Source: Blastocatellia bacterium
GTDB taxonomy: Bacteria > Acidobacteriota > Blastocatellia > UBA7656
DNA: 63,384 bases
Direction: 5' to 3'
NCBI GenBank assembly: GCA_036505875.1
Contig: DASXSR010000288.1
Location: 1 to 63,384, forward strand
In this document: one piece after another, positions 14,723-30,457 of the stretch
Position numbering within the stretch: position 1 is the stretch's first letter
How the letters are laid out: every line of letters starts with the position of its first letter
Position numbers and translations under genes: made by a program
The notes under the pieces: generated by a model
The model's input: the letters and a program-made list of their open reading frames with translations, nothing else
The model's database searches: none
What the model was told of the DNA's origin: nothing

Positions 14723-16357
14723 TCACTTCTTAAAAATCTTTTTCGCGATCGAGCCGACGTCGGATTTCCAAATGCTGGCTTGAGCGAGATCGGTTTTGAG
14801 GCCGCCGCCGTTGGTTTCTCGCCGCGCCACGCGGTTGTCGGGATCGAGTTGAAGCGCCTCGTGAAAATAATGCTCAGCCCTCTTGAGCAATCCAGCTTGC
14901 TTGTATAACAGCCCAAGCTTAGCTCGAATCTGCGCGTTGTAAGGCTCGAGCTCGGCCGCCTTTGACAAGTGCCCCTCTGCTTCACGGCGAGTGCGAGGGT
15001 TTCGGATCAGGGCTATGCCCAGATGAAAGTGATAGGCCGCGCGCGTTGAATCCAACTTGATCGCTTCTCGAAGCAGGTGAACTGCTGCGTGATATTCCTT
15101 TCTCTCAAATCGCGCGCGCCCTTGATTGTAGTAAAGCTCGGCCATCTGCGCGGGCGGGAGATGAGGCTCAGTCTTGCGCGCGAGAGGGATTGCTTCGACT
15201 GCCGGCGCTGCAGCGGCGGCCGTCGTCGCCTCGACGACTTCTCCTTGTGTTTCTGCGTTGAGGTCGCCGCTCGGCATTCGCAGATCATCATATGACTTGG
15301 ACTCGCTCCCCGACCCGGTCGGCACTCTCGATTGATCCTTTGCTCTAATTTTTTCGTCGTACGCCGCGCGTGCCGCAGGGTGGTTTAGAGTGTCGTATGC
15401 CTGAGTCATCAACGCAAACAGCGCCTCAAGCATGTTACGCAAATCACCCACGTCACGACGGCCGTATCGGTCCGGATGATATTTCTTGGCGAGATGATAG
15501 TAGGCTGCCTTTACCTCTGCCATTGTGGACTGACGCGTCACTTCCAACACGTCGTAATAATCGCCAGTCGTGCTGAAATGCAGCTTGCGAGCAACGTCCT
15601 CGCGCAAGTGCTCTAACGACTCTTCATCCTGGCCGTCAGCTTCATCGTGCAGGTCTCCGTTGCGACCGGCGAGCTTCAGGAACCCGGCAGCGATCAACGC
15701 GCAAACCGCGCGATGCGCGTCGGCTTCTCCAAGCCCGCTCAACGGTCCCACCTCGCTGACCGGGGTGGGCGATTCGATCCGCGACAAGATATAGCTCTCT
15801 GTTGGAATCAGCTTGCCCGAGTCGGCGCCGAGACCGTTGGTCGTCGCTCGAATCACAACTCCGTCGCGGGGCGCAAGCGCTTCAGCCGCCCGCTCGACCT
15901 CCGCCGCACGACGCGCTCCTTCCAATAGCACCTCGGCCGCGGTCATCTTCAGCATCACATCGTGAGCAGTTCGGATCCGCGGGTCAAACGCGTAATCGCC
16001 CTCAGTCCATTCGAACAGTGACAGTATAATGCCCATCGCCTGAGAGCGAACCAACTCCTGCATCTGCTCGTCTTCCAGGAGACCCATCTCGACCAGCACA
16101 GGGCCGAGCCGGTTGGTCTTCCCCCCGCGCTGCTTGGCCTGCTCGATCACCTCGAAAGAGAGCAGTCCTTCCTTTACGAGTTTGTGATCGAGCTGCTCGG
16201 TTGTAATGTTGCTGATTGCGAAGGTAGGCGCGCCGTCCTCGAAGAAAATCGCCTTGATTACTTTGCCGCGCGACAACCGCAGCAGGCCGCTTGAGTTCTG
16301 TTGAGCTAACTCTCGAATGAGATTCGGGAGAAGTTTTTCGCCGAGCTGTCCCTGCAC
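14723..16357 (-). CDS. DUF4388 (PATAN-like) + J-domain + TPR protein
   Basis: The N-terminus reads L.NLIRELAQQNSSGLLRL..G...KAIFFEDG, which is DUF4388-like. The central region DYYDVLEV......EVKAAYY.LAKKYHPDR is a J domain. The C-terminus has TPR-like helices (YYNQGRA...Y..A...L.EA..LD). Confidence 0.75.
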   Translation of the reverse strand: MQGQLGEKLLPNLIRELAQQNSSGLLRLSRGKVIKAIFFEDGAPTFAISNITTEQLDHKLVKEGLLSFEVIEQAKQRGGKTNRLGPVLVEMGLLEDEQMQELVRSQAMGIILSLFEWTEGDYAFDPRIRTAHDVMLKMTAAEVLLEGARRAAEVERAAEALAPRDGVVIRATTNGLGADSGKLIPTESYILSRIESPTPVSEVGPLSGLGEADAHRAVCALIAAGFLKLAGRNGDLHDEADGQDEESLEHLREDVARKLHFSTTGDYYDVLEVTRQSTMAEVKAAYYHLAKKYHPDRYGRRDVGDLRNMLEALFALMTQAYDTLNHPAARAAYDEKIRAKDQSRVPTGSGSESKSYDDLRMPSGDLNAETQGEVVEATTAAAAAPAVEAIPLARKTEPHLPPAQMAELYYNQGRARFERKEYHAAVHLLREAIKLDSTRAAYHFHLGIALIRNPRTRREAEGHLSKAAELEPYNAQIRAKLGLLYKQAGLLKRAEHYFHEALQLDPDNRVARRETNGGGLKTDLAQASIWKSDVGSIAKKIFKK

Positions 16358-19015: not shown

Positions 19016-21214
19016 CTATGCCTTCGCGACGCGGCGGGCCAGGTTTGCCACCGCCGACGCGAGCGTGGCAGGTTCGATTGGCTTGGCGAGGTGACGCTCG
19101 AATCCCGCTTCGAGTACTCGCCTTCGGTCCTCGGTCGTAGCATATGCAGTGAGCGCGATGGCGGGGATCTTACCTCCGTGCTGCGGCGCCAATGCTCGGA
19201 CTCGTCTGATTAAGTCAAATCCATCCTCGATGGGCATGCCGATGTCGCTCACCAGCACATCGGGCATTGAGCCATTAATCGGGCCGGCGAGCGCCGCCAG
19301 CGCTTCTGACACCGAGGCTGCCGCGACAACCGATGCGCCACGCTGCTCGAGCATCGCGACAAGCAGCTCCCGGGCGTCGCTTTCGTCGTCGACGATCATG
19401 ACTCTCAACCCGGCGAGCTGTTTCGAATCATCCTTCAGGCGCTCGGGCACGCGGAGCGCCTTTAATGAACCGGTCGACACGGCAACGAGCGGAAATGACA
19501 CGGTGAAAGTAGCGCCCTTTCCGCGTCCCGCGCTTTCCGCTCGCACCTCGCCTCCGTGCATCTCGACAAGATGCCGCACGATCGCGAGTCCAAGGCCAAG
19601 CCCGCCGTGCATTCGAGCAAAGGTGCTGTCCGCTTGCCTGAAGCGGTCGAAGACGTAAGGCAAGAACTCCTCGGCGATGCCTTCACCGTTATCAGTCACC
19701 ATTATGCTGGCGGTTGATGGGTCCCTCTCGAGACTTACGGCGACCTCGCCCCCCGTGGGGGTAAACTTAATCGCATTAGAAAGCAGGTTCCAAGCCACTT
19801 GCTGCAAGCGATTTGGATCGCCGGACACGCGCGCCGAGCGATCGACTGATACGCGCAGCCTGATGTTCTTTGCATCGGCAGCGGGGCGTATCGCATCCAG
19901 AGCGGCTTCGATCACCGGCGCAAGCTCGATTGGTCTCGCCTCGAGCCTGAGCTTCCCCGATATTATTCGCGACACGTCCAACAGATCCTCGATGATCTGA
20001 GCCAGCGATTTCGTATTCCGTTCAATCGTATCCAGAGCCCGCGCGGAGCTTTGACTGTCCAGAGTATTTGTGCGCATCAGCTGGGCCCAGCCGAGTATCG
20101 AGTTCAAGGGTGTGCGCAATTCGTGCGAGACTGTGGCTAAGAACTCATCTTTGAGACGGTTGGCTGCCTCAGCTTCAGCCCGCGCCTGTTTCTCCCTGAG
20201 CAGCAAATCAGAACTGAGCCTGTGCGCTTGTTCAGCTTCGAGTCGGGCAGCTTTCTCGCTGAGCAGCAGCTTCTCCTTCTCCTCCTGGGCTTGCTTTCGC
20301 TCGGTCACTTCTACAAGCAAGTCGGAAGCGTGACGCCGCGCGTCGGCGTACAACCTTGCGTTCTCGTAAGCGGCCGCCAGTTGCCCGGTCAAAGTCATCG
20401 CCAGACGTTCGTCCGCTTCACTGAACTCGCCGCCCTCGAGCTTGTCGATAAGACACAACCAGCCGGCTGTCCTTTCCGGCAAAGCAATCGGAGCAGCGAG
20501 AGCCGATCTCCCGTCAACCGCTTCAGCAGCCGAAATACGAATCGGCTGATCTTCCGAGCGAGTAGCATCAAAGATTGGTTCGTAGCTCCCGCGGAACTTC
20601 CTGCCAGACGCAGCCTCGAGGCCGTCGATTCGTACGCGTGTGCTTCGAGCACCGAGAATGTCGCAGGCCGAGTCACAGAAGAGCTTCAGAAGAGCTTGCG
20701 GGTCGCGCTCAGCGGTCATCCGCTGTCCAAGCTCGACCAGCTTGCCCAGTCGCTGGAAATTTGCGTTCTCCAACGCAATGTTCTTTTCGTGCAGCAGCGC
20801 CGCCTGCTGTTTCACCTGCTCCGTCTTCTTGAAAAGCTCGACGAACACCGCCACCTTCGATTTCAAGGCGTCCGGGTCGAAAGGCTTGACTATGTAGTCG
20901 ACGGCCCCGAGCGAATAACCTCTCCAAAGGTCTTGTTTGTCGGCGCTGTCATATGCGGTCAGAAAAATAATAGGCACATCGCGAGTTTTCTTTCGCCCGC
21001 GAATCAACTCGGCCGTCTCGAGCCCGCTAATGCCCGGCATTCGGACGTCTAGCAGAACGACGGCCACGTCGTTGTGCAACAAGTAAAGCAAAGCCTCTTC
21101 GCCGGACGCAGCTCGAACCAGGTTGCGATCTTCGCCCTTAAGAATGGTCTCCAAGGCGAGCAGATTGCCCTTGTTGTCGTCGACCAGCAGAATATTTACA
21201 TTCGTACAATCCAT
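19016..21214 (-). CDS. Hybrid sensor histidine kinase: REC-GAF-coiled coil-HisKA-HATPase-REC
   Basis: The N-terminal REC reads ILLVDD...LDV.MP..SG and the H-box reads [16 protein letters not shown] boxes (LLSNAIKFT, DNGEGI, GGLGLGLAIV) and a C-terminal REC (VMIVDDE...SDIGMP) follow. The ATG at 21214 lies 5 nt after the cheR stop; an alternative TTG lies at 21226. Confidence 0.9.
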   Translation of the reverse strand: MDCTNVNILLVDDNKGNLLALETILKGEDRNLVRAASGEEALLYLLHNDVAVVLLDVRMPGISGLETAELIRGRKKTRDVPIIFLTAYDSADKQDLWRGYSLGAVDYIVKPFDPDALKSKVAVFVELFKKTEQVKQQAALLHEKNIALENANFQRLGKLVELGQRMTAERDPQALLKLFCDSACDILGARSTRVRIDGLEAASGRKFRGSYEPIFDATRSEDQPIRISAAEAVDGRSALAAPIALPERTAGWLCLIDKLEGGEFSEADERLAMTLTGQLAAAYENARLYADARRHASDLLVEVTERKQAQEEKEKLLLSEKAARLEAEQAHRLSSDLLLREKQARAEAEAANRLKDEFLATVSHELRTPLNSILGWAQLMRTNTLDSQSSARALDTIERNTKSLAQIIEDLLDVSRIISGKLRLEARPIELAPVIEAALDAIRPAADAKNIRLRVSVDRSARVSGDPNRLQQVAWNLLSNAIKFTPTGGEVAVSLERDPSTASIMVTDNGEGIAEEFLPYVFDRFRQADSTFARMHGGLGLGLAIVRHLVEMHGGEVRAESAGRGKGATFTVSFPLVAVSTGSLKALRVPERLKDDSKQLAGLRVMIVDDESDARELLVAMLEQRGASVVAAASVSEALAALAGPINGSMPDVLVSDIGMPIEDGFDLIRRVRALAPQHGGKIPAIALTAYATTEDRRRVLEAGFERHLAKPIEPATLASAVANLARRVAKA

Positions 21215-21219
21215 AACAT

Positions 21220-22083
21220 TTACCAATTTGATGCGGCCGCGCCTGGCATTCCTCGCTTTTGATAAAGACAGCTTTCCGTGTCAAGCGGGGCATAGCAATC
21301 TTCATGCGGCATCGACTCGATTGATTCAGCGGGACCCAGCGCGAGCACCCCAAAGCGGCTGAGGCTTTCGTAAATCAGTTTGTCGACCCGCTCCTTCAGT
21401 CTCTGATTGAAACTGCCGAGAATGCCTCGGCAAACGACAACTTGAAACTCGTTGAACGAGCCGTCAGTCGCAAGATTGTGTTCGGAAAAGACGATGTTCT
21501 TCTTGAGCGCCGGATCGATCAGCGCGCGTTTGCCTTTCTTACTGAAGTACTGCGATAACGACCACTTTCCGCCCGAGCTCCGGTAATTAGCGGCACACTT
21601 ATCGGGAAGCGAGAGCGAAAAGCTTCCGACACGCGCCTGACCTATCGCGCGGGTGCTCATATCAGTGGCGTAGATGCGTGACCGCTCATACAGGCCCTCT
21701 TCCTTGAGCAGAATCGCCATCGAGTAAACGTCCTCACCCGTCGAGCAGCCTGCGTGCCAGATGCGGACGAAAGGATAAGTCCTCAACTGCGGAACGACCT
21801 TCGTTCTGAAGGTATTGTAAAACGCGGGATCCGAGAACATCGAAAGATCGCGCAGAGAGAAGGCGCCCAGCAACCGCTCCAACAAAGCAGGCTCGCGAAG
21901 CACCTTCTCTTGAAAACGCGATATGGTCGGGATACGGCCCGCCAGCATGCGCTCGCGGATTCGGAGTCTCACCGCCCCGCGATCGTAATCCCGGAGATCG
22001 TAGCCGTAATAACGAAATACGGCTTCGAGCAACAAGTCGATTTCCAGTTCTTCCAGATTGTCGTTCGTCACGTTGTCACTCAT
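21220..22083 (-). CDS. cheR: CheR-type protein-glutamate O-methyltransferase
   Basis: The product has an N-terminal helical CheR domain ([20 protein letters not shown]), an SAM-binding motif ([18 protein letters not shown]) and IYATD. The start at 22083 (MSDNV) makes an ATGA overlap with the upstream kinase stop. Confidence 0.85.
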
Positions 22084-25000
22084 GCCCGCGCTGCTTTGCT
22101 GCCGTAGAGCCAGACCCGCAACATCGACAGCAGTTGGTCGATGTCCAGCGGTTTGGAAATGTAATCTGACGCTCCCGCCTCGATGCACTTGTCGCGGTCC
22201 GCTTTCATCGCCTTGGCCGTCAATGCGATGATCGGCAGCTCGGCGAGGCTCTCTATCTTGCGGATCGCCTGCATTGTCTCGTAGCCGTCCAACTCCGGCA
22301 TCATGATGTCCATCAACACTACGTCGATGCCTGGAATTTGCTGCAACAACTTTATGCCTTCGCGCCCGTCCTCCGCATAGAAGACTTCCATCTGATAGCT
22401 TTCCAGGGTGCTGGACAGCGCGAATATGTTGCGGACGTCGTCGTCCACAATCAGAACTTTCTTGCCCGCAAGCACCGGGTCTTGCCGCATCACCTCTTGA
22501 ATCATCCGGCGTTTGGGTTCCGGCATGTTGGCTTCCACGCGATGCAGGAAGAGTGCTGTTTCAGCAAGCAGTCTCTCGGGCGAATTGACCTCCTTTACCA
22601 CTATCGCGTCGGCGACTTGCCTCAACTGGCTCTCTTCCTTTTCGGTGAGGTCCTTGCCGGTGTACACGATTATTGGAAGGTCGTTTTGACCAAGCTCCCT
22701 CTGAATCTTATCGATCAATTCGAAGCCGCTGATGTCAGGCAATCTTAGATCCAGAACCATGCAATCGAATTGCTGGGCCTTGAGCGCTTCGAGTGCCTCG
22801 GACGCCGTAGCAACGCCGACCGTATCAACGTCTCCGCCGCCGATCAGCTCGATGATGCTCATCCGTTGGGCGTCATCGTCCTCCACAACAAGCAGCCGCT
22901 TCACGTCTCGCTGTGAAAACGCGGCGATCTGATCGAACGCTTCTGCGAGTTGCTCCCGAGAGACCGGCTTTTGCAAGTGCATAAACGCGCCGAACGCGCG
23001 AGGATGACGCGCCTGCTCGTACGCGGTAATCACGTGCACCGGAATGTGGCTCGTTTGCGGATCGTGCTTTAAACGATCGAGCACAGTCCAGCCCTCCTGA
23101 TCCGGCAGTTTGATATCCAGCGTTATCGCATCGGGCTTGTACTTGCGCGCGAGCGTCAACGCGACATCACCGCGCGCCGCAACCAGCCCTTTGAAACCCT
23201 TCTCGTGCGCGAGATCGAGGAGGATCTGCGCGAACAAGGCATCATCTTCTACGATCAGCACGATTCGCTCTCCGGGCGCGATGTTAGCGCGATCGTCGGC
23301 GATCTCTATTACTTCGCTGTATTCGGCAACCGGAAACGGACTGACGCTCGGAGCATTCCGCGCAAGTACAGCGGCAAGGCCATAGCTCGCTTGCGATGAG
23401 ACCCGCCCCGAGGTCTTGTGGGCGCGCGGCAAATAGAGGGTGAACGTGCTGCCTTCTCCGGCCGCGCTGGCGACTCGGATCTCGCCTCCGAGCAGTCGCG
23501 CAATTTCACGGCTGATCGACAGTCCCAGCCCTGTGCCGCCGTACTTGCGACTGGTCGTGCCATCGGCCTGCTGGAACGGTTCGAAGATTATCTGCTGCTT
23601 GTCTGCCGGAATCCCGATCCCGGTATCCGTCACCGAGAAGGCCACAACCAGGTCTGCCAGGTTGAGACTGTCCATTGCGAAGTGGCCGCGTTTTTCGACC
23701 GTCTTTATTTGAAGCGAGACTCGCCCGCGGTCGGTGAACTTGAAGGCGTTTGACAGCAGATTTTTGAGGACCTGTTGCAACCGCTTCTGGTCCGTCGAGA
23801 GCGTTGCAGGCATGTTGGGCTCCATTTCAATTGCGAAGTCCAATCCCTTGTCCTGCGCAATCTGATGGAAGCTGCGATTCATCTGTTCCATTACATCGAT
23901 GAATGGAACATCGGCAGTTTCGATCGCCAACATCCCCGACTCGATCTTCGACAGATCCAGAATGTCGTTGATCAGTGAAAGCAGATCGTTGCCCGAAGAG
24001 TGAATCGTCTCAGCGAACTGGACCTGTTTCGGCGTTAGCGTAGACTCCGTGTTCTCCGCGAGCTGACGTGACAGGATCAACATGCTGTTGAGCGGAGTCC
24101 TCAACTCGTGAGACATGTTGGCGAGGAATTCAGACTTGTATTTCGAAGTGAGCGCGAGCTGTTCGGCTTTTTCTTCCATCGCCCAGCGCGCCTCCTCGAC
24201 CTCGCGGTTCTTGGCTTCGACTTCCGACTTTTGCTGAGCGAGAAGCGTTGCTTTCTCCTTCAGCTCTTCGTTTGTGTTTTGCAGCTCTTCCTGTTGGCTG
24301 CGCAGTCGCTCCTCCGACTCGCGGAGGCTCAGGGCTTGCTGTTCGAGCCGCTCGTTGGTCTTCTTCAGCTCATCCTGTTGGCTCTGCAGTTCTGTGGCCA
24401 GCGACTGTGACTGGATCAACAGCCGCTCGGTTCGCGTGTTCGCCTCAATCGTGTTCAGCACGATTCCGATGCTTTCGGTCAGCGTATCCAGGAAGGTTAC
24501 GTGAACCTCACTGAAACGATTGAAGGAAGCGAGTTCGATGACCGCCTTTACTTCCTCCTCGAACAACACCGGCAAGACGATGATGTTGAGCGGCGGGGCC
24601 TCGCCCAACCCCGAGCTGACAAAGATGTAATCGTTGGGGACGTTGGTCAGCATTATGCGCTTCTTCTCCAACACGCACTGTCCGACGATCCCCTCTCCGG
24701 TCCTAAACTCGTTCGAGAGGTTCTTGCGATTCGAGTAAGCATAACCGCCGAGCAGCCTCATCAGCGTTTGCCCTTCCGCCTCGGGCTGGTTTACATAGAA
24801 CACGCCTTGTTGCGCATCGACCAGGGGCGCCAGTTCCGAAAGGATCATGTTGGCGACCGTTGTCATGTCGCGCTGGCCTTGAAGCATTCCTGTGAACCGC
24901 GCGAGGTTGGTCTTGAGCCAATCTTGCTCGGTGTTCTTCTGGGTGGTGTCTTTGAGGTTGCGGATCATCTCGTTGATGTTGTCTTTGAGGGCCGCGACCT

Positions 25001-28000
25001 CGCCTTGCGCCTCGACTGCAATCGAGCGGGTGAGGTCCCCCTGCGTGACCGCCGTCGCGACCTCGGCGATGGCTCGCACCTGGTTTGTAAGGTTCGCTGC
25101 GAGCTGGTTCACGTTGTCGGTCAAGTCTCTCCAGGTGCCGTAAGCACCCGGCACGTTCGCTTGCCCGCCGAGCTTGCCTTCGACGCCGACCTCGCGCGCC
25201 ACGGTCGTCACCTGATCTGCGAAAGTCGCCAGGGTGTCGGTCATGGCGTTGATTGTGTTGGCCAACTCGGCGATCTCGCCTTTCGATTCGATGGTCAGCT
25301 TACGGTTCAATTCACCGTTTGCGACTGCCGTCACGACGCGGGCGATGCCGCGCACCTGGCCGGTTAAGTTGCCGGCCATGAAGTTGACGTTGTCGGTCAG
25401 GTCCTTCCAGGTGCCGGCGACGCCCTTCACGTCAGCCTGTCCGCCAAGCTTGCCTTCGGTTCCAACTTCGCGCGCCACGCGCGTCACTTCAGACGCAAAC
25501 GAGTTGAGCTGGTCGACCATAACGTTGATCGTGTTCTTCAGTTCGAGAATCTCTCCCTTAACGTCGACGGTTATCTTCTTCGACAGGTCGCCGTTGGCGA
25601 CGGCCGTGGTCACCTCGGCGATGTTACGAACCTGCGCGGTCAGGTTGCTGGCCATGAAATTCACGTTGTCGGTCAGGTCCTTCCACGTGCCGGCGACGCC
25701 GCGCACGTCGGCCTGTCCGCCGAGCTTGCCTTCGGTGCCGACCTCGCGCGCCACGCGAGTGACTTCCGACGCGAACGCGTTGAGCTGGTCGACCATGACG
25801 TTGATCACTTCTTTGATCTGAAGAATCTCGCCGCGCACGTCTACGGTAATCTTCTGCGTTAGGTCGCCGTTTGCAATGGCGGTTGCAACCTTAGACATAT
25901 CGCGAAGCTGAACAGTGAGGTTGCCGGCCATCAGATTCACGTTGTCAGTCAAGTCCTTCCATGTGCCGGCGACGCCCGCGACCTGCGCCTGCCCACCGAG
26001 TTTGCCTTCGGTTCCGACTTCGCGCGCCACACGAGTGACTTCGGAAGCGAACGCGTTAAGCTGGTCCACCATTCGGTTGATCGTGTTCTTCAACTCAAGA
26101 ATTTCGCCCTTAACATCGACGGTGATCTTCTTCGACAGATCGCCGTTGGCGACCGCCGTTGTGACCTCTGCGATGTTTCTCACCTGAGCGGTAAGGTTGC
26201 CGGCCATGAAGTTCACGCTGTCGGTCAGGTCCTTCCACGTGCCGGCGACTCCGGGCACTTGAGCTTGCCCGCCGAGCTTGCCTTCAGTTCCAACCTCGCG
26301 CGCCACGCGCGTCACTTCGGATGCAAACGAGTTGAGCTGATCGACCATTCGATTGATCGTGTTCTTTAGTTCTAGAATCTCACCCTTTACGTCGACTGTG
26401 ATTTTCTTCGAAAGGTCGCCGTTAGCCACAGCGGTTGTGACCTCGGCGATGTTGCGGACCTGTCCGGTTAAGTTGCCGGCCATCGAGTTGACGCTGTCGG
26501 TCAGGTCCTTCCAGGTTCCGCCCACACCGCGCACGTCGGCCTGGCCGCCAAGCTTGCCCTCAGTTCCGACCTCTCTCGCCACGCGTGTTACTTCGGAAGC
26601 GAACGAGTTGAGCTGATCAACCATTCGATTGATTGTGTTCTTGAGCTCAAGAATCTCGCCCTTAACGTCTACGGTTATTTTCTTCGACAGGTCGCCGTTG
26701 GCGACGGCCGTTGTCACTTCGGCGATGTTTCTCACTTGGCCTGTCAGGTTCCCGGCCATCGAGTTAACGTTATCGGTCAAGTCTTTCCACGTACCTGCGA
26801 CATCAGGCACGATAGCTTGACCGCCGAGCTTGCCTTCCGTTCCTACTTCCCTCGCAACGCGTGTTACTTCCGACGCGAACGCGTTAAGCTGGTCGACCAT
26901 GACGTTGATGGTGTTCTTCAATTCAAGAATCTCGCCTTTCACGTCGACGGTGATTTTCTTAGAAAGGTCGCCTTTGGCCACCGCGGTAGTCACATCAGCG
27001 ATGTTGCGCACTTGAGCGGTAAGGTTCCCGGCCATCGAGTTGACGCTGTCGGTCAGATCCTTCCACGTGCCACCCAACCCACGCACGTCGGCTTGGCCGC
27101 CGAGCTTCCCTTCGGTCCCGACCTCACGAGCGACGCGGGTGACCTCGGAAGCGAACGAGTTAAGCTGATCGACCATAACGTTGATCGTGTTCTTCAGCTC
27201 GAGGATTTCGCCTCTCACGTCAACGGTAATCTTCTTTGAAAGGTCGCCCTTTGCGACTGCGGTTGTCACCTCGGCGATGTTTCTCACCTGAGCCGTCAGG
27301 TTGCCGGCCATGAAGTTGACGTTGTCGGTCAGGTCTTTCCAAGTGCCGGCGACTCCGGGCACTTCCGCTTGCCCGCCGAGCTTGCCTTCGGTTCCGACTT
27401 CTCTCGCAACGCGCGTAACTTCCGACGCAAACGAGTTGAGCTGATCGACCATCCGGTTGATCGTGTTCTTCAGCTCAAGAATCTCGCCCTTCACGTCGAC
27501 CGTGATCTTCTTTGAGAGGTCGCCATTAGCCACGGCGGTCGTGACCTCGGCAATGTTTCTCACCTGCCCGGTCAAGTTTCCGGCCATCGAGTTAACGTTA
27601 TCGGTGAGATCTTTCCAGGTTCCTGCGACTCCACGAACTTGAGCCTGTCCGCCGAGCTTGCCTTCGGTACCGACTTCTCTGGCGACGCGCGTCACCTCCG
27701 AAGCGAATGAGTTGAGCTGGTCGACCATTCGATTGATCGTGTTCTTCAGCTCGAGGATTTCGCCCTTCACGTCGACCGTGATTTTCTTCGACAGGTCGCC
27801 GTTGGCCACGGCGGTCGTGACTTCGGCGATGTTCCTCACTTGCCCGGTGAGGTTGCCGGCCATCGAGTTCACGTTGTCAGTCAGGTCCTTCCACGTGCCG
27901 GCAACATCCGGCACAACGGCTTGGCCGCCGAGCTTGCCTTCAGTTCCCACTTCTCTTGCGACGCGAGTGACTTCGGAAGCGAACGCGTTGAGCTGGTCAA

Positions 28001-29039
28001 CCATCGTGTTGATTGTGTTCTTGAGCTCGAGGATTTCACCTCGCACGTCGACGGTGACCTTCTTCGACAGGTCGCCGCGGGCTACCGCGGTTGTCACTTC
28101 TGCGATGTTGCGCACTTGAGCAGTCAGGTTGCCGGCCATCGAGTTGACGCTGTCGGTCAGGTCCTTCCAACTGCCCGCGACGCCTTTCACTTTCGCCTCG
28201 CCGCCCAACTTGCCTTCGGTTCCAACTTCTCTAGCAACGCGCGTGACCTCCGAGGCGAACGACCCAAGCTGTCCGACCATAGCATTGACCAGCTTGACCG
28301 ATCGCAGGAAATCACCTCTCAGCGGTCTGCCGTCTACTTCCAACGCCATGGTCTGAGAGAGATCCCCGTTTGCAACCGCGCCAATCACGCGGGCCATCTC
28401 GGTCGTCGGTCGAACCATATCGTCAATGAGAGTGTTGACCGAGTCGATCAAGCTTCGCCACGAGCCGTCAGCCGAGGGCAGCATCGCCCGCTGAGCGATC
28501 TTGCCTTCTTTGCCGACCACTCGGCTCACGCGTTCGAGTTCTCTCGTCAGCCTGTCATTACGGCCGATCACTTCATTAAGAGTGTCGGCAATCTTGCCGG
28601 GAATACCGACCCAATCGTCAGGCAGGCGCACCGAGAAGTCCCCCTTCTTAAGGGCGACCACAGTCTTCAGCAATTCTCTGTCGTTAGGCGATTTGGTGAC
28701 CGCGCCGTCAGCCGCTTGTTTAGCTTTGGGCCTGGCCATGATATCGACGATAGAATTGATTGACTTGAATGATTTCGCCCAGGAACCCTTCGCGGCCGGC
28801 AGCTTCCCGTTTCTTGTGATCTTTTGATCCTTACTTGCGGCTTTGCTTACGCGGTCAAGCTCGCTCGCAAGCTTTGAGTTGAGAGTCGCTACATCATTAA
28901 AGGCTCTCGCGATCTCGCGCTCGACGCCGGTGGACTTCTCAGAAAGCCGCGCGGAGAAGTCGCCTTTCTTTAAAGCCGTCAGCGCCTGCAGCAATTGGCT
29001 GCTGTCTATAGTATTGGTGATCGCTTCCGGATTTGGCAT
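22080..29039 (-). CDS. Giant soluble poly-HAMP hybrid sensor kinase: N-terminal HAMP-like units, about 12 x 92-aa HAMP repeats, GAF, coiled coil, HisKA-HATPase and 3 x REC
   Basis: The ORF has no N-terminal TM segment. The repeated unit is [19 protein letters not shown]...[58 protein letters not shown]. An H-box ([14 protein letters not shown]), N/G boxes and three D-containing REC domains follow. The start at 29039 (MPNPE, preceded by AAGGGGG) is preferred over 29072. Confidence 0.9.
24950..28250. repeat. Tandem 276-bp (92-codon) coding repeat, about 12 copies, inside the poly-HAMP kinase gene
   Basis: I counted 92 aa from one EVTRVAREV to the next. The first unit starts at about aa 275 of the ORF (about nt 28250). 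The twelfth, most divergent unit ends near nt 24950. Confidence 0.85.
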
Positions 29040-29209
29040 TGAACCCCCTTTTGGTATCTCACGACACACCACACCTCTTCGGCTGGCGAATGAATCGCGG
29101 GCCGTCCAGTTCGATAAGGTCTATGCGAACGGTCTTTCGGTGGCAAGAGACGAAACTACCGCTTAAGTAAGGACTGGTAGAAATTTGCGACACCGCTAAG
29201 GGTATCGAG

Positions 29210-29313: not shown

Positions 29314-30390
29314 TCATTCCTTCGGCGCGACCTTTCTTGATGACCCGCCGATTGCGCCGCCCGCGCCGGCTACTAACTCCTCAGGTTGGACGGTCGAAAG
29401 CCCGAGCGCCTTTCGTACTTCAGTTTCGACGCGGGTCGCCATCTCGCGGTCAGACTTGAGCGTGCCCTTGGCGTTCTCGCGCCCTTGACCGAGACGTTCG
29501 CCTTTGAAACTGAACCACGCGCCGCTCTTTTCAATGATTTTGTTCTCGACTGCGATATCCAACAAATCGCCCACTTGCGAAATGCCTTCGCCGTACATTA
29601 TGTCGAACTCGGCTTCTTTGAACGGCGGCGCGACCTTGTTCTTAACCACCTTGACTTTTGTGCGATTGCCGACTGTTGAATCGCCATCTTTGATCGAGCT
29701 GGTCCGGCGAATCTCGAGTCTGACCGACGAGTAGAACTTGAGCGCGCGGCCTCCCGTCGTGGTTTCGGGATTGCCGAACATCACTCCGATCTTTTCGCGA
29801 ATCTGGTTGATGAAGATCAAGCAAGTGTTTGATCGCGACACTACCGCGGTCAATTTTCTGAGCGCCTGAGACATCAGTCGTGCCTGGAGTCCCGGAAGAG
29901 AATCTCCCATCTCGCCCTCAAGCTCGGCTCTCGGCACCAGCGCCGCGACCGAATCGATCACCAAAACGTCTACGCCTCCCGAACGGACTAACGCTTCCGC
30001 GATTTCCAGCGCCTGTTCGCCTGAATCAGGCTGTGAAATGAACAGGTCATTCACGTTGACTCCCAGCTTTTCAGCATACTTCGCGTCCATCGCGTGCTCG
30101 GCGTCGATGTAGGCCGCCACGCCGCCCGCCTCCTGCGCCTGGGCGACGATGTGAAGCGCGAGTGTTGTTTTGCCGCCCGATTCAGGGCCGTAGATTTCAA
30201 CGATTCGTCCGCGAGGCACGCCTCCAATTCCGATTGCGGCGTCCAGGCTCAAACACGACGTGGAGATGGCGGGCACATCCACAACCTTGCGCTCGCCAAG
30301 CCGCATAATTGAGCCTTTGCCGAATTGCTTTTCTATGTTGGCAATTGCAATATCTATGGCGCGATTGCGCTCAGTTCTGTCGTCTGCCAT
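29314..30390 (-). CDS. recA: Recombinase RecA
   Basis: The product from the ATG at 30390 reads [32 protein letters not shown]. Later motifs include [16 protein letters not shown] (Walker A) and ...[31 protein letters not shown]. Confidence 0.97.
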
Positions 30391-30457
30391 TTCGTTGTTC
30401 CTTTCGTTTCGGATCTGGAGCGAAGAACGCCCACTATACCACAATAAGCAACAAACT

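Follow-up and report, generated by a model that had tools for sequence, protein, structure and literature searches.

Soluble histidine kinases with long chains of HAMP domains have been described from many bacteria. In brief, di-HAMP modules, which pair a non-canonical (C) with a canonical (D2) HAMP, are arranged in an array that precedes GAF, DHp, catalytic ATPase (CA) and receiver (REC) domains (Coles et al. 2026, PMC13446029). AskA and AskB of Myxococcus xanthus have 21 and 31 HAMPs, respectively, and hundreds of similar soluble kinases are known (PMC13446029, PMC7643160). Both proteins are tied to ambruticin sensing and development (PMC7643160). The third HAMP is characterised by a kink at a proline and by an insertion in its linker (PMC13446029, section 2.2). 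Here we analyse a gene for such a kinase from a Blastocatellia bacterium, found in a 63,384-nucleotide stretch of DNA (contig DASXSR010000288.1, assembly GCA_036505875.1) hereafter called the window. We suggest that the repeat region of this gene very probably codes for the signalling rod in a soluble poly-HAMP hybrid kinase of the AskA type, and that it is an old array in which every unit is held by very strong purifying selection.

The kinase is encoded by a minus strand open reading frame (ORF) of 2330 codons at 22080-29072, opening at a GTG at 29072, and the protein is 2319-2330 aa long depending on the start codon chosen. The true start is likely the ATG at 29039 (codon 12), giving 2319 aa, since it has AGGGGG six bases upstream and falls on the first invariant column of the homologue alignment. 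Pfam found 12 HAMP and 13 HAMP_2 stretches (approximately 25), a GAF_2, a HisKA, a HATPase_c and three Response_reg stretches, in the order HAMP array, GAF, HisKA, HATPase and three REC. Signature motifs for canonical (G-D-[LF]-S, 15 matches) and non-canonical (G-[ST]-W, 14 matches) HAMPs give approximately 29 HAMPs in the whole chain, including three degenerate modules that precede the first regular unit, U1. The gene is laid out as follows.

22080..29039, minus strand: poly-HAMP hybrid histidine kinase gene (ORF list and translation, Pfam)
28737..29039, minus strand: extra N-terminal di-HAMP (aa 12-112), 43% identical to aa 131-222, and after it a linker rich in Lys, Ala and Pro (aa 113-130)
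28170..28682, minus strand: AskA-like head (aa 131-301) with HAMP1 of D1 type, a non-canonical HAMP2, and HAMP3 with Pro kink and linker insertion (phmmer to 9TRK)
25410..28169, minus strand: core array U1-U10, ten 276-bp (92-aa) di-HAMP units (Tandem Repeats Finder, identity and dN/dS matrices)
25686-25961, minus strand: U9, a divergent unit with 76-79% protein identity to the other units (identity matrix)
25134..25409, minus strand: U11, a di-HAMP with position-specific divergence and 61-73% identity to the core units (identity matrix)
24948..25133, minus strand: U12, the last non-canonical helix and last canonical HAMP, merging into the GAF linker (anchor motif, HAMP signatures)
24456..24872, minus strand: GAF domain (aa 1401-1539; Pfam GAF_2, E = 2.9e-17)
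23421..24452, minus strand: coiled-coil stalk, DHp (HisKA, aa 1646-1713) and catalytic ATPase (HATPase_c, aa 1760-1884) (Pfam)
22083..23267, minus strand: three receiver domains (aa 1936-2330; Pfam Response_reg, three stretches)

A two-unit query matched PDB entries 9TRK and 9TRJ with E = 1.5e-147 (phmmer), and the aligned unit sequences are almost identical. Both entries are annotated as a histidine kinase fused to GCN4; they represent 6-HAMP and 4-HAMP segments of AskA, respectively (Coles et al. 2026, PMC13446029). The head is collinear with residues 23-221 of 9TRK (E = 2e-92, phmmer), and aa 122-301 are collinear with HAMP1-3 of AskA (residues 52-221). The aligned part takes in two features of HAMP3, its Pro kink (RPTTEM) and the insertion of 5 residues in its linker (EVDGRPLRG). 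The window kinase thus has a D1 head and a third HAMP kinked by proline and carrying a linker insertion. It also has a chain of highly similar C and D2 di-HAMP modules at a fixed spacing of 92 aa, a G[ST]W motif at 14 of 14 junctions, and the GAF_2, HisKA, HATPase_c and three Response_reg domains.

The protein is soluble. A Kyte-Doolittle scan in 19-residue windows found no transmembrane segment, the sole segment scoring at least 1.6 being a beta strand of a receiver domain, and Pfam gave no N-terminal domain other than the HAMPs. The absence of both a transmembrane segment and an upstream sensor domain is again as in the known family, and it agrees with an earlier note on this DNA, made from the sequence alone, which had described a soluble protein. 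The same note had regarded the array as unusually long, and this did not stand given the 21 and 31 HAMPs of AskA and AskB and the many similar kinases already described (PMC13446029, PMC7643160). Neither array length nor solubility is new. Judged by all the defining features that can be tested in a sequence, the window kinase belongs to the known, structurally characterised AskA-type poly-HAMP family.

The extra N-terminal di-HAMP, as judged from its similarity to the adjacent module, is a duplicate of the AskA-like head module. It belongs to the clade of the window and has no counterpart in the crystallised AskA constructs. In P0101, a relative with 83% identity, the N-terminal part is approximately 100 aa shorter, with the first in-phase anchor at aa 202 compared to 302, and for this reason P0101 probably also lacks the extra di-HAMP.

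Tandem Repeats Finder reported one array at 25341-28262, with a period of 276 bp, 10.6 copies and 80% matches. In the protein, the anchor W[KR]DLTD recurs exactly every 92 aa (aa 302, 394 and onwards to 1314). There are 11 full 92-aa units, U1-U11 (25134-28169), and a 12th, the second half of which degenerates into the GAF linker. The earlier count of about 12 tandem 92-aa units is confirmed, the last of them being degenerate. The units were also said to be nearly identical in protein and diverged at silent DNA positions, and they are: U1-U8 and U10 are pairwise 88-98% identical in protein and 78-86% in DNA. Over all 55 unit pairs, codon positions 1, 2 and 3 carry 615, 421 and 2362 differences, respectively, which places approximately 70% at the third position. 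Units U2, U3, U6 and U7 are 96-98% identical in protein compared to 82-86% in DNA. An 84-aa string thought to be common to these four units is identical in U2, U3 and U6, with U7 one residue off. The by-eye estimate that DNA differs at one position in five agrees with the 79.7% identity between 26341-26616 and 26617-26892. The earlier observation thus stands on all counts.

The number of synonymous substitutions per synonymous site (dS; Nei-Gojobori) between units is 0.83-2.32, with a mean of 1.28 for the 55 pairs. The corresponding nonsynonymous value (dN) is 0.01-0.09 among U1-U8 and U10, and the median horizontal (between-unit) dN/dS is approximately 0.06. With a minimum of 0.83, dS is nowhere near zero, which upholds the by-eye alignment on which the earlier note relied.

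The conservation of the rod extends far beyond the window. More than 8000 database proteins match the kinase query at E <=1e-50. The best 120 of these share the kinase architecture and almost always the period of 92 aa, mostly with 12-14 units, and the closest (89-91% identity) come from Blastocatellia-type Acidobacteriota. A scan of species-representative genomes gave 80 loci from Cyanobacteria, Acidobacteriota, Alpha-, Beta- and Gammaproteobacteria, Bacteroidota, Bacillota, Planctomycetota, Verrucomicrobiota, Myxococcota, Gemmatimonadota and Eremiobacterota. The full survey comprised 83 loci and the window, and column conservation was calculated over the 682 core units of these 84 loci. Across phyla, consensus units have 87-93% identity to those of the window. 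Of the 92 unit columns, 47 are at least 98% conserved and 68 at least 90%. Conservation reaches at least 98% for W1, for G91 and for the GG of unit positions 81-82, and at least 90% for G88. Only 14 columns vary freely, and four of them (10, 17, 24 and 31) are exactly heptad-spaced.

The array is more conserved than the rest of the protein. Between the window and the related locus L001, dN is 0.013 and dN/dS 0.010 for the array. The values are 0.064 and 0.042 for the region from GAF to CA, 0.054 and 0.015 for the receiver domains, and 0.142 and 0.089 for the N-terminus. Identity to distant relatives is 82-89% for the array compared to 50-79% for GAF, DHp, CA and REC. The poly-HAMP rod is thus the slowest-evolving and most constrained part of the protein.

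The array is also old. The units pair one-to-one by position with those of the 89-91% relatives: all 12 with P0016, and 11 of 12 uniquely with P0018 and P0027, where the 12th is tied. The idiosyncratic substitutions of each window unit are also found in the same-position units of these three proteins. Orthologous units of the window and L001 differ by a dS of 0.9-2.0. Since the units are one-to-one and orthologue dS is already saturated, the present arrangement predates the split from the 89-91% relatives. Distant relatives have a counterpart of U11 at the matching place in the array. Of the two causes that the earlier note had offered, the first, an old array whose units are all under very strong purifying selection, is therefore supported, as the units are one-to-one orthologous and the dN/dS of the array, approximately 0.01, lies below that of the catalytic and receiver domains.

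Over longer times the units do turn over. Compared to the 83% relative, P0101/L002, which has 11 units, only U9, U11 and U12 have clear counterparts, and the units of L002 are younger (dS 0.3-1.0). In L003, an acidobacterium with 17 units, dS is 0.2-0.9 and DNA identity reaches 95%. Across the survey, core-unit identity is 0.82-0.95 in protein and 0.74-0.89 in DNA. The median proportion of synonymous differences (pS) is 0.21-0.73, and the window (0.62) is near the upper end but typical. Arrays with unit pairs 95-98% identical in DNA are found in L061, L021, L079, L064, L077 and L003; these are cases of recent unit duplication or conversion, and turnover is ongoing in parts of the family. Unit number, by in-phase counts, is 12 in the close relatives but 11 in the 83% relative and 6-17 family-wide. 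Variable counts among orthologues, which the earlier note had taken to speak against constraint, are thus found in part. The array is constrained but not frozen, and slow turnover occurs.

These observations show the architecture and history of the array. Canonical and non-canonical HAMPs take turns along the chain of approximately 29, with one di-HAMP module to each 92-aa unit, stacked head to tail before the GAF domain, the kinase core and the three receivers. The array was last homogenised before the split from the 89-91% relatives, a depth at which silent sites are saturated. Since then, purifying selection on each unit has been stronger than on the catalytic domains, while silent sites drifted to near the ceiling set by codon usage; the saturated dS between paralogous units is what drift alone produces. 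On a longer time scale, duplication, loss or conversion of units occurs now and then, leaving lineage-specific shared residues and the 6-17 units seen family-wide.

By analogy with the AskA crystal structures and models (PMC13446029), the protein would dimerise into one continuous four-helix coiled coil. Neighbouring canonical and non-canonical HAMPs would adopt opposite rotation states (x-da or knobs-into-holes versus da-x), with the conserved Trp and Gly residues packing the junctions tightly. The rod could then relay or tune a conformational signal on its way to the GAF domain and kinase core, followed by a phosphorelay via the receivers. The constraint may arise because most helix positions must meet two alternative core packings as well as tight inter-domain contacts. 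This would leave only the outermost heptad stripe free to vary, which fits the heptad-spaced variable columns.

Several points weigh against this account. The residues G13 and R55 are common to most units of the window clade, and independent conservation of each unit alone is thus not the whole story. Codon sharing is slightly more frequent among the window units (0.543) than between non-orthologous units from two genomes (0.487), so that some residual common ancestry or a column-specific codon preference remains. As dS is saturated, the age of the last homogenisation is a lower bound only. The rotation relay and the dimer are borrowed from the structures and models of AskA. Metagenome assemblies under-represent arrays with DNA-identical units, and the survey is therefore biased towards diverged arrays, though isolates agree. 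Isolate and complete genomes (Bradyrhizobium, Calothrix, Chitinophaga, Paenibacillus and Nannocystis) show the same pattern of diverged DNA, which is therefore not only an assembly bias.

It should be noted how such arrays behave in short-read data. In contigs from soil metagenomes and metatranscriptomes (runs X1-X4), in which we looked for polymorphism of the unit count, the depth over window positions 25200-28200 is 100-300x that of the flanks, owing to short multi-mapping unitigs, and all joints have sides of 20-28 nt. The array was not assembled in the soil contigs, and short-read metagenomes thus under-sample or fragment genes of this kind. The window sequence itself is present in soil metagenomes and in runs labelled metagenomic RNA-Seq, with a flank depth of approximately 7-13.

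Two compositional observations also concern the array. The AT skew of the plus strand is approximately -0.23 over the array (24000-28000), compared to mostly 0 to -0.1 and once +0.19 in other segments; we take this dip to be a compositional footprint of the codons of the repeated unit. Several antisense ORFs of 150-300 aa lie in the array, for instance at 24501-25367 on the plus strand, and are probably by-products of a GC-rich repeated frame.

Selection for uniformity is an alternative that we consider unlikely. It holds that units are kept like each other as a cooperative chain of equivalent switches, in which a change in one unit favours the same change elsewhere. Such selection would account for lineage residues that are common to most units despite saturated silent sites: G13 and R/V55 in the window clade, S61 and K87 in P0012/P0052, and G62 in P0117/P0075 (Variovorax and Aquisphaera). 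It would also account for unit identity being higher within a protein than between lineages, by up to approximately 10 points and mostly by 2-6. However, old duplication or conversion followed by decay of silent sites gives the same pattern, with L002 and L003 as intermediate stages, and the residues in question are single-nucleotide neighbours (GGC/AGC, AAC/AGC). The simplest reading of the lineage-shared residues is occasional duplication, loss or conversion, at a rate slower than silent-site saturation.

Whether the divergent U11 co-varies with internal units was also considered. Among 48 dereplicated proteins, columns 7-17 of U11 co-vary with the internal units, as uniformity would have it. 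The effect is limited to the first approximately 17 columns (weaker at 31 and 43), which are probably part of the preceding regular module, and the permutation test ignores phylogeny. We rejected it as evidence for uniformity selection, as the module boundary explains it best.

Selection against nucleotide identity was the other cause that the earlier note had offered for the pattern. Here silent differences would be favoured because they avert collapse of the array by RecA or slippage. DNA identity between units is indeed no higher than 78-86%, no exact repeat in the 3.3-kb array exceeds 42 nt, and DNA divergence of this level would lower recombination. The codons speak against it. At identical residues the window units use the same codon in 54.3% of cases, compared to 37-46% expected from codon usage. 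Between the window and L001, the figure is 48.7% when the units are non-orthologous and 52.2% when they are orthologous. Codon sharing between the window units is thus higher, not lower, than either codon usage or non-orthologous units predict. The longest in-register identical runs average 21.3 nt compared to 19.4 nt under random placement, which gives no sign of over-dispersion, and by our own arithmetic runs of 36-42 nt are about what is expected at 0.54 per codon over approximately 4400 windows; identical runs of 12-14 codons should turn up some one or two times in these comparisons. The relatives L003, L021, L061 and L079 keep units that are 92-98% identical in DNA, and drift alone suffices, as the window and L001 are just as diverged in their orthologous units. 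We see no indication of selection on the DNA differences themselves, and we regard this explanation as very unlikely.

Two further features of the codons were considered. The longest shared runs, of 36 nt (U4-U11) and 42 nt (U1-U7), had a nominal p of approximately 0.001 in a column shuffle and were candidates for gene-conversion tracts. They were rejected, since the shuffle null ignores the clustering of conserved codons and approximately 1-3 such runs are expected at 0.54. A switch between the TCN and AGY codon families of serine was considered as a sign of extreme age; conserved Ser columns in the window are all TCN.

Recent intragenic amplification or gene conversion is the least probable cause of the near-identity, scarcely to be credited for this gene. 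PMC13446029 considers near-identical di-HAMP modules consistent with intragenic amplification in the family, units in other arrays are younger (dS of 0.2-0.4 for L003 and L002, and single pairs 96-98% identical in DNA in L021 and L061) and unit number differs among lineages, but the minimum dS of 0.83 for any unit pair refutes it for the window gene, where the 12 units are one-to-one orthologous with those of relatives that have reached silent-site saturation compared to the window, and it accounts for the origin of the array rather than for its present near-identity. The earlier note had likewise set recent duplication and conversion aside, and the saturated dS confirms this.

The genes surrounding the kinase gene are the following.

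29314-30444, minus strand: recA, immediately upstream of the poly-HAMP kinase gene (neighbour scan)
21220..22188, minus strand: CheR-type methyltransferase gene, directly downstream of the poly-HAMP kinase gene (Pfam CheR, CheR_N)
19016..21226, minus strand: second hybrid kinase gene, REC-GAF-HisKA-HATPase-REC, downstream (Pfam)
14723-16357, minus strand: ORF encoding DUF4388, a DnaJ J-domain and TPR repeats, a few genes away

The cheR gene is probably in the same operon as the poly-HAMP kinase gene. The same arrangement is found in L001 and L003, the latter with CheB as well, and CheR is adjacent in 17 of the 83 related loci. The second hybrid kinase gene also follows in L001 and L002. We did not find a chemoreceptor gene among the scanned neighbouring ORFs. 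An MCP-type (methyl-accepting chemotaxis protein) methylation site in the kinase was considered as the target of CheR and rejected, as neither of the two kinases contains the motif. The position of recA beside a repeat gene is probably a coincidence, since L001 and L002 have other genes there.

One could speculate that the units are uniform because the rod is cooperative in an Ising-like manner, with lineage-specific substitutions sweeping through every unit of the protein without homogenisation of the DNA, and that CheR modifies the rod or kinase as an adaptation system independent of chemoreceptors. We give this a slim chance.

The preferred explanation, an old array under strong purifying selection, is ordinary, if extreme, for a described protein family. 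What it adds is modest: the near-identity of the units is kept by stronger selection than acts on the catalytic domains and not by recent amplification. The words "synonymous" and "nucleotide" were not found in the text of PMC13446029. For work on HAMP domains, the result means that the rod and not the catalytic core evolves slowest, with half of the unit positions essentially invariant across phyla. This suggests that each di-HAMP is functionally tuned at the level of single residues, as would fit a bistable relay with two packings to satisfy, and the rod is probably more than a spacer of adjustable length. When units within one protein are nearly identical, this is not usable as evidence of recent amplification. 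For repeat studies in general there is a caution, in that saturated silent sites and ordinary drift yield repeats that are "protein-identical, DNA-diverged", and selection to avoid recombination is not needed.

The arrays of Variovorax P0117, a betaproteobacterium, and Aquisphaera P0075, a planctomycete, share idiosyncratic substitutions at units 1, 2, 6, 11 and 12. As read from these sequences, the pattern suggests that the whole gene was transferred horizontally between phyla.

Compared to AskA and AskB, the window kinase is likewise soluble, with a D1 head, the kink and insertion in HAMP3, 92-aa C and D2 modules and Trp/Gly at the junctions, and with GAF, DHp, CA and receivers downstream of the array. 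Its approximately 29 HAMPs compare with 21 in AskA and 31 in AskB. It differs in the extra N-terminal duplicated D1-C pair with its basic linker and in having three receivers. The locus differs in having a CheR gene and a REC-GAF-kinase gene directly downstream.

The fungal group III kinases (Nik1/Os-1/TcsC/Bos1) are also soluble hybrid kinases with N-terminal alternating HAMPs in modules of approximately 92 aa. They are eukaryotic, with approximately 5-7 HAMPs. The units of their arrays are more divergent, and they have no GAF domain and a single receiver. Judged by description, the window kinase is not one of them, as it has bacterial neighbours (recA, cheR and mnmA), 29 HAMPs, a GAF domain and three REC domains. 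The fungal kinases have been grouped with the bacterial kinase arrays (PMC13446029), but their arrays are shorter, frequently with >5 HAMPs (PMC7643160), and the poly-HAMP region of AskA and AskB is extended compared to Nik1.

Aer2 from Pseudomonas aeruginosa resembles the window kinase in being soluble, with concatenated HAMPs of alternating conformations and tight Gly-mediated junctions (PMC13446029). It differs in having five dissimilar HAMPs, split by a PAS-haem domain, and an MCP signalling output. Pfam found no PAS or MCPsignal domain in the window kinase, the output of which is a histidine kinase, and it is thus not of the Aer2 type. Aer2-like multi-HAMP arrays have been allied to the chemoreceptor-type arrays, which are regarded as independent in origin from the kinase-type arrays (PMC13446029).

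Protein repeats in general follow a biphasic rule, according to which they are better conserved between orthologues than between paralogous units (Persi, Wolf and Koonin 2016, PMC5120217). The window array fits this rule, with a vertical dN/dS of approximately 0.01 that is lower than the horizontal median of approximately 0.06. Compared to repeat evolution in general (PMC5120217), its horizontal divergence is exceptionally low given that the silent sites are saturated.

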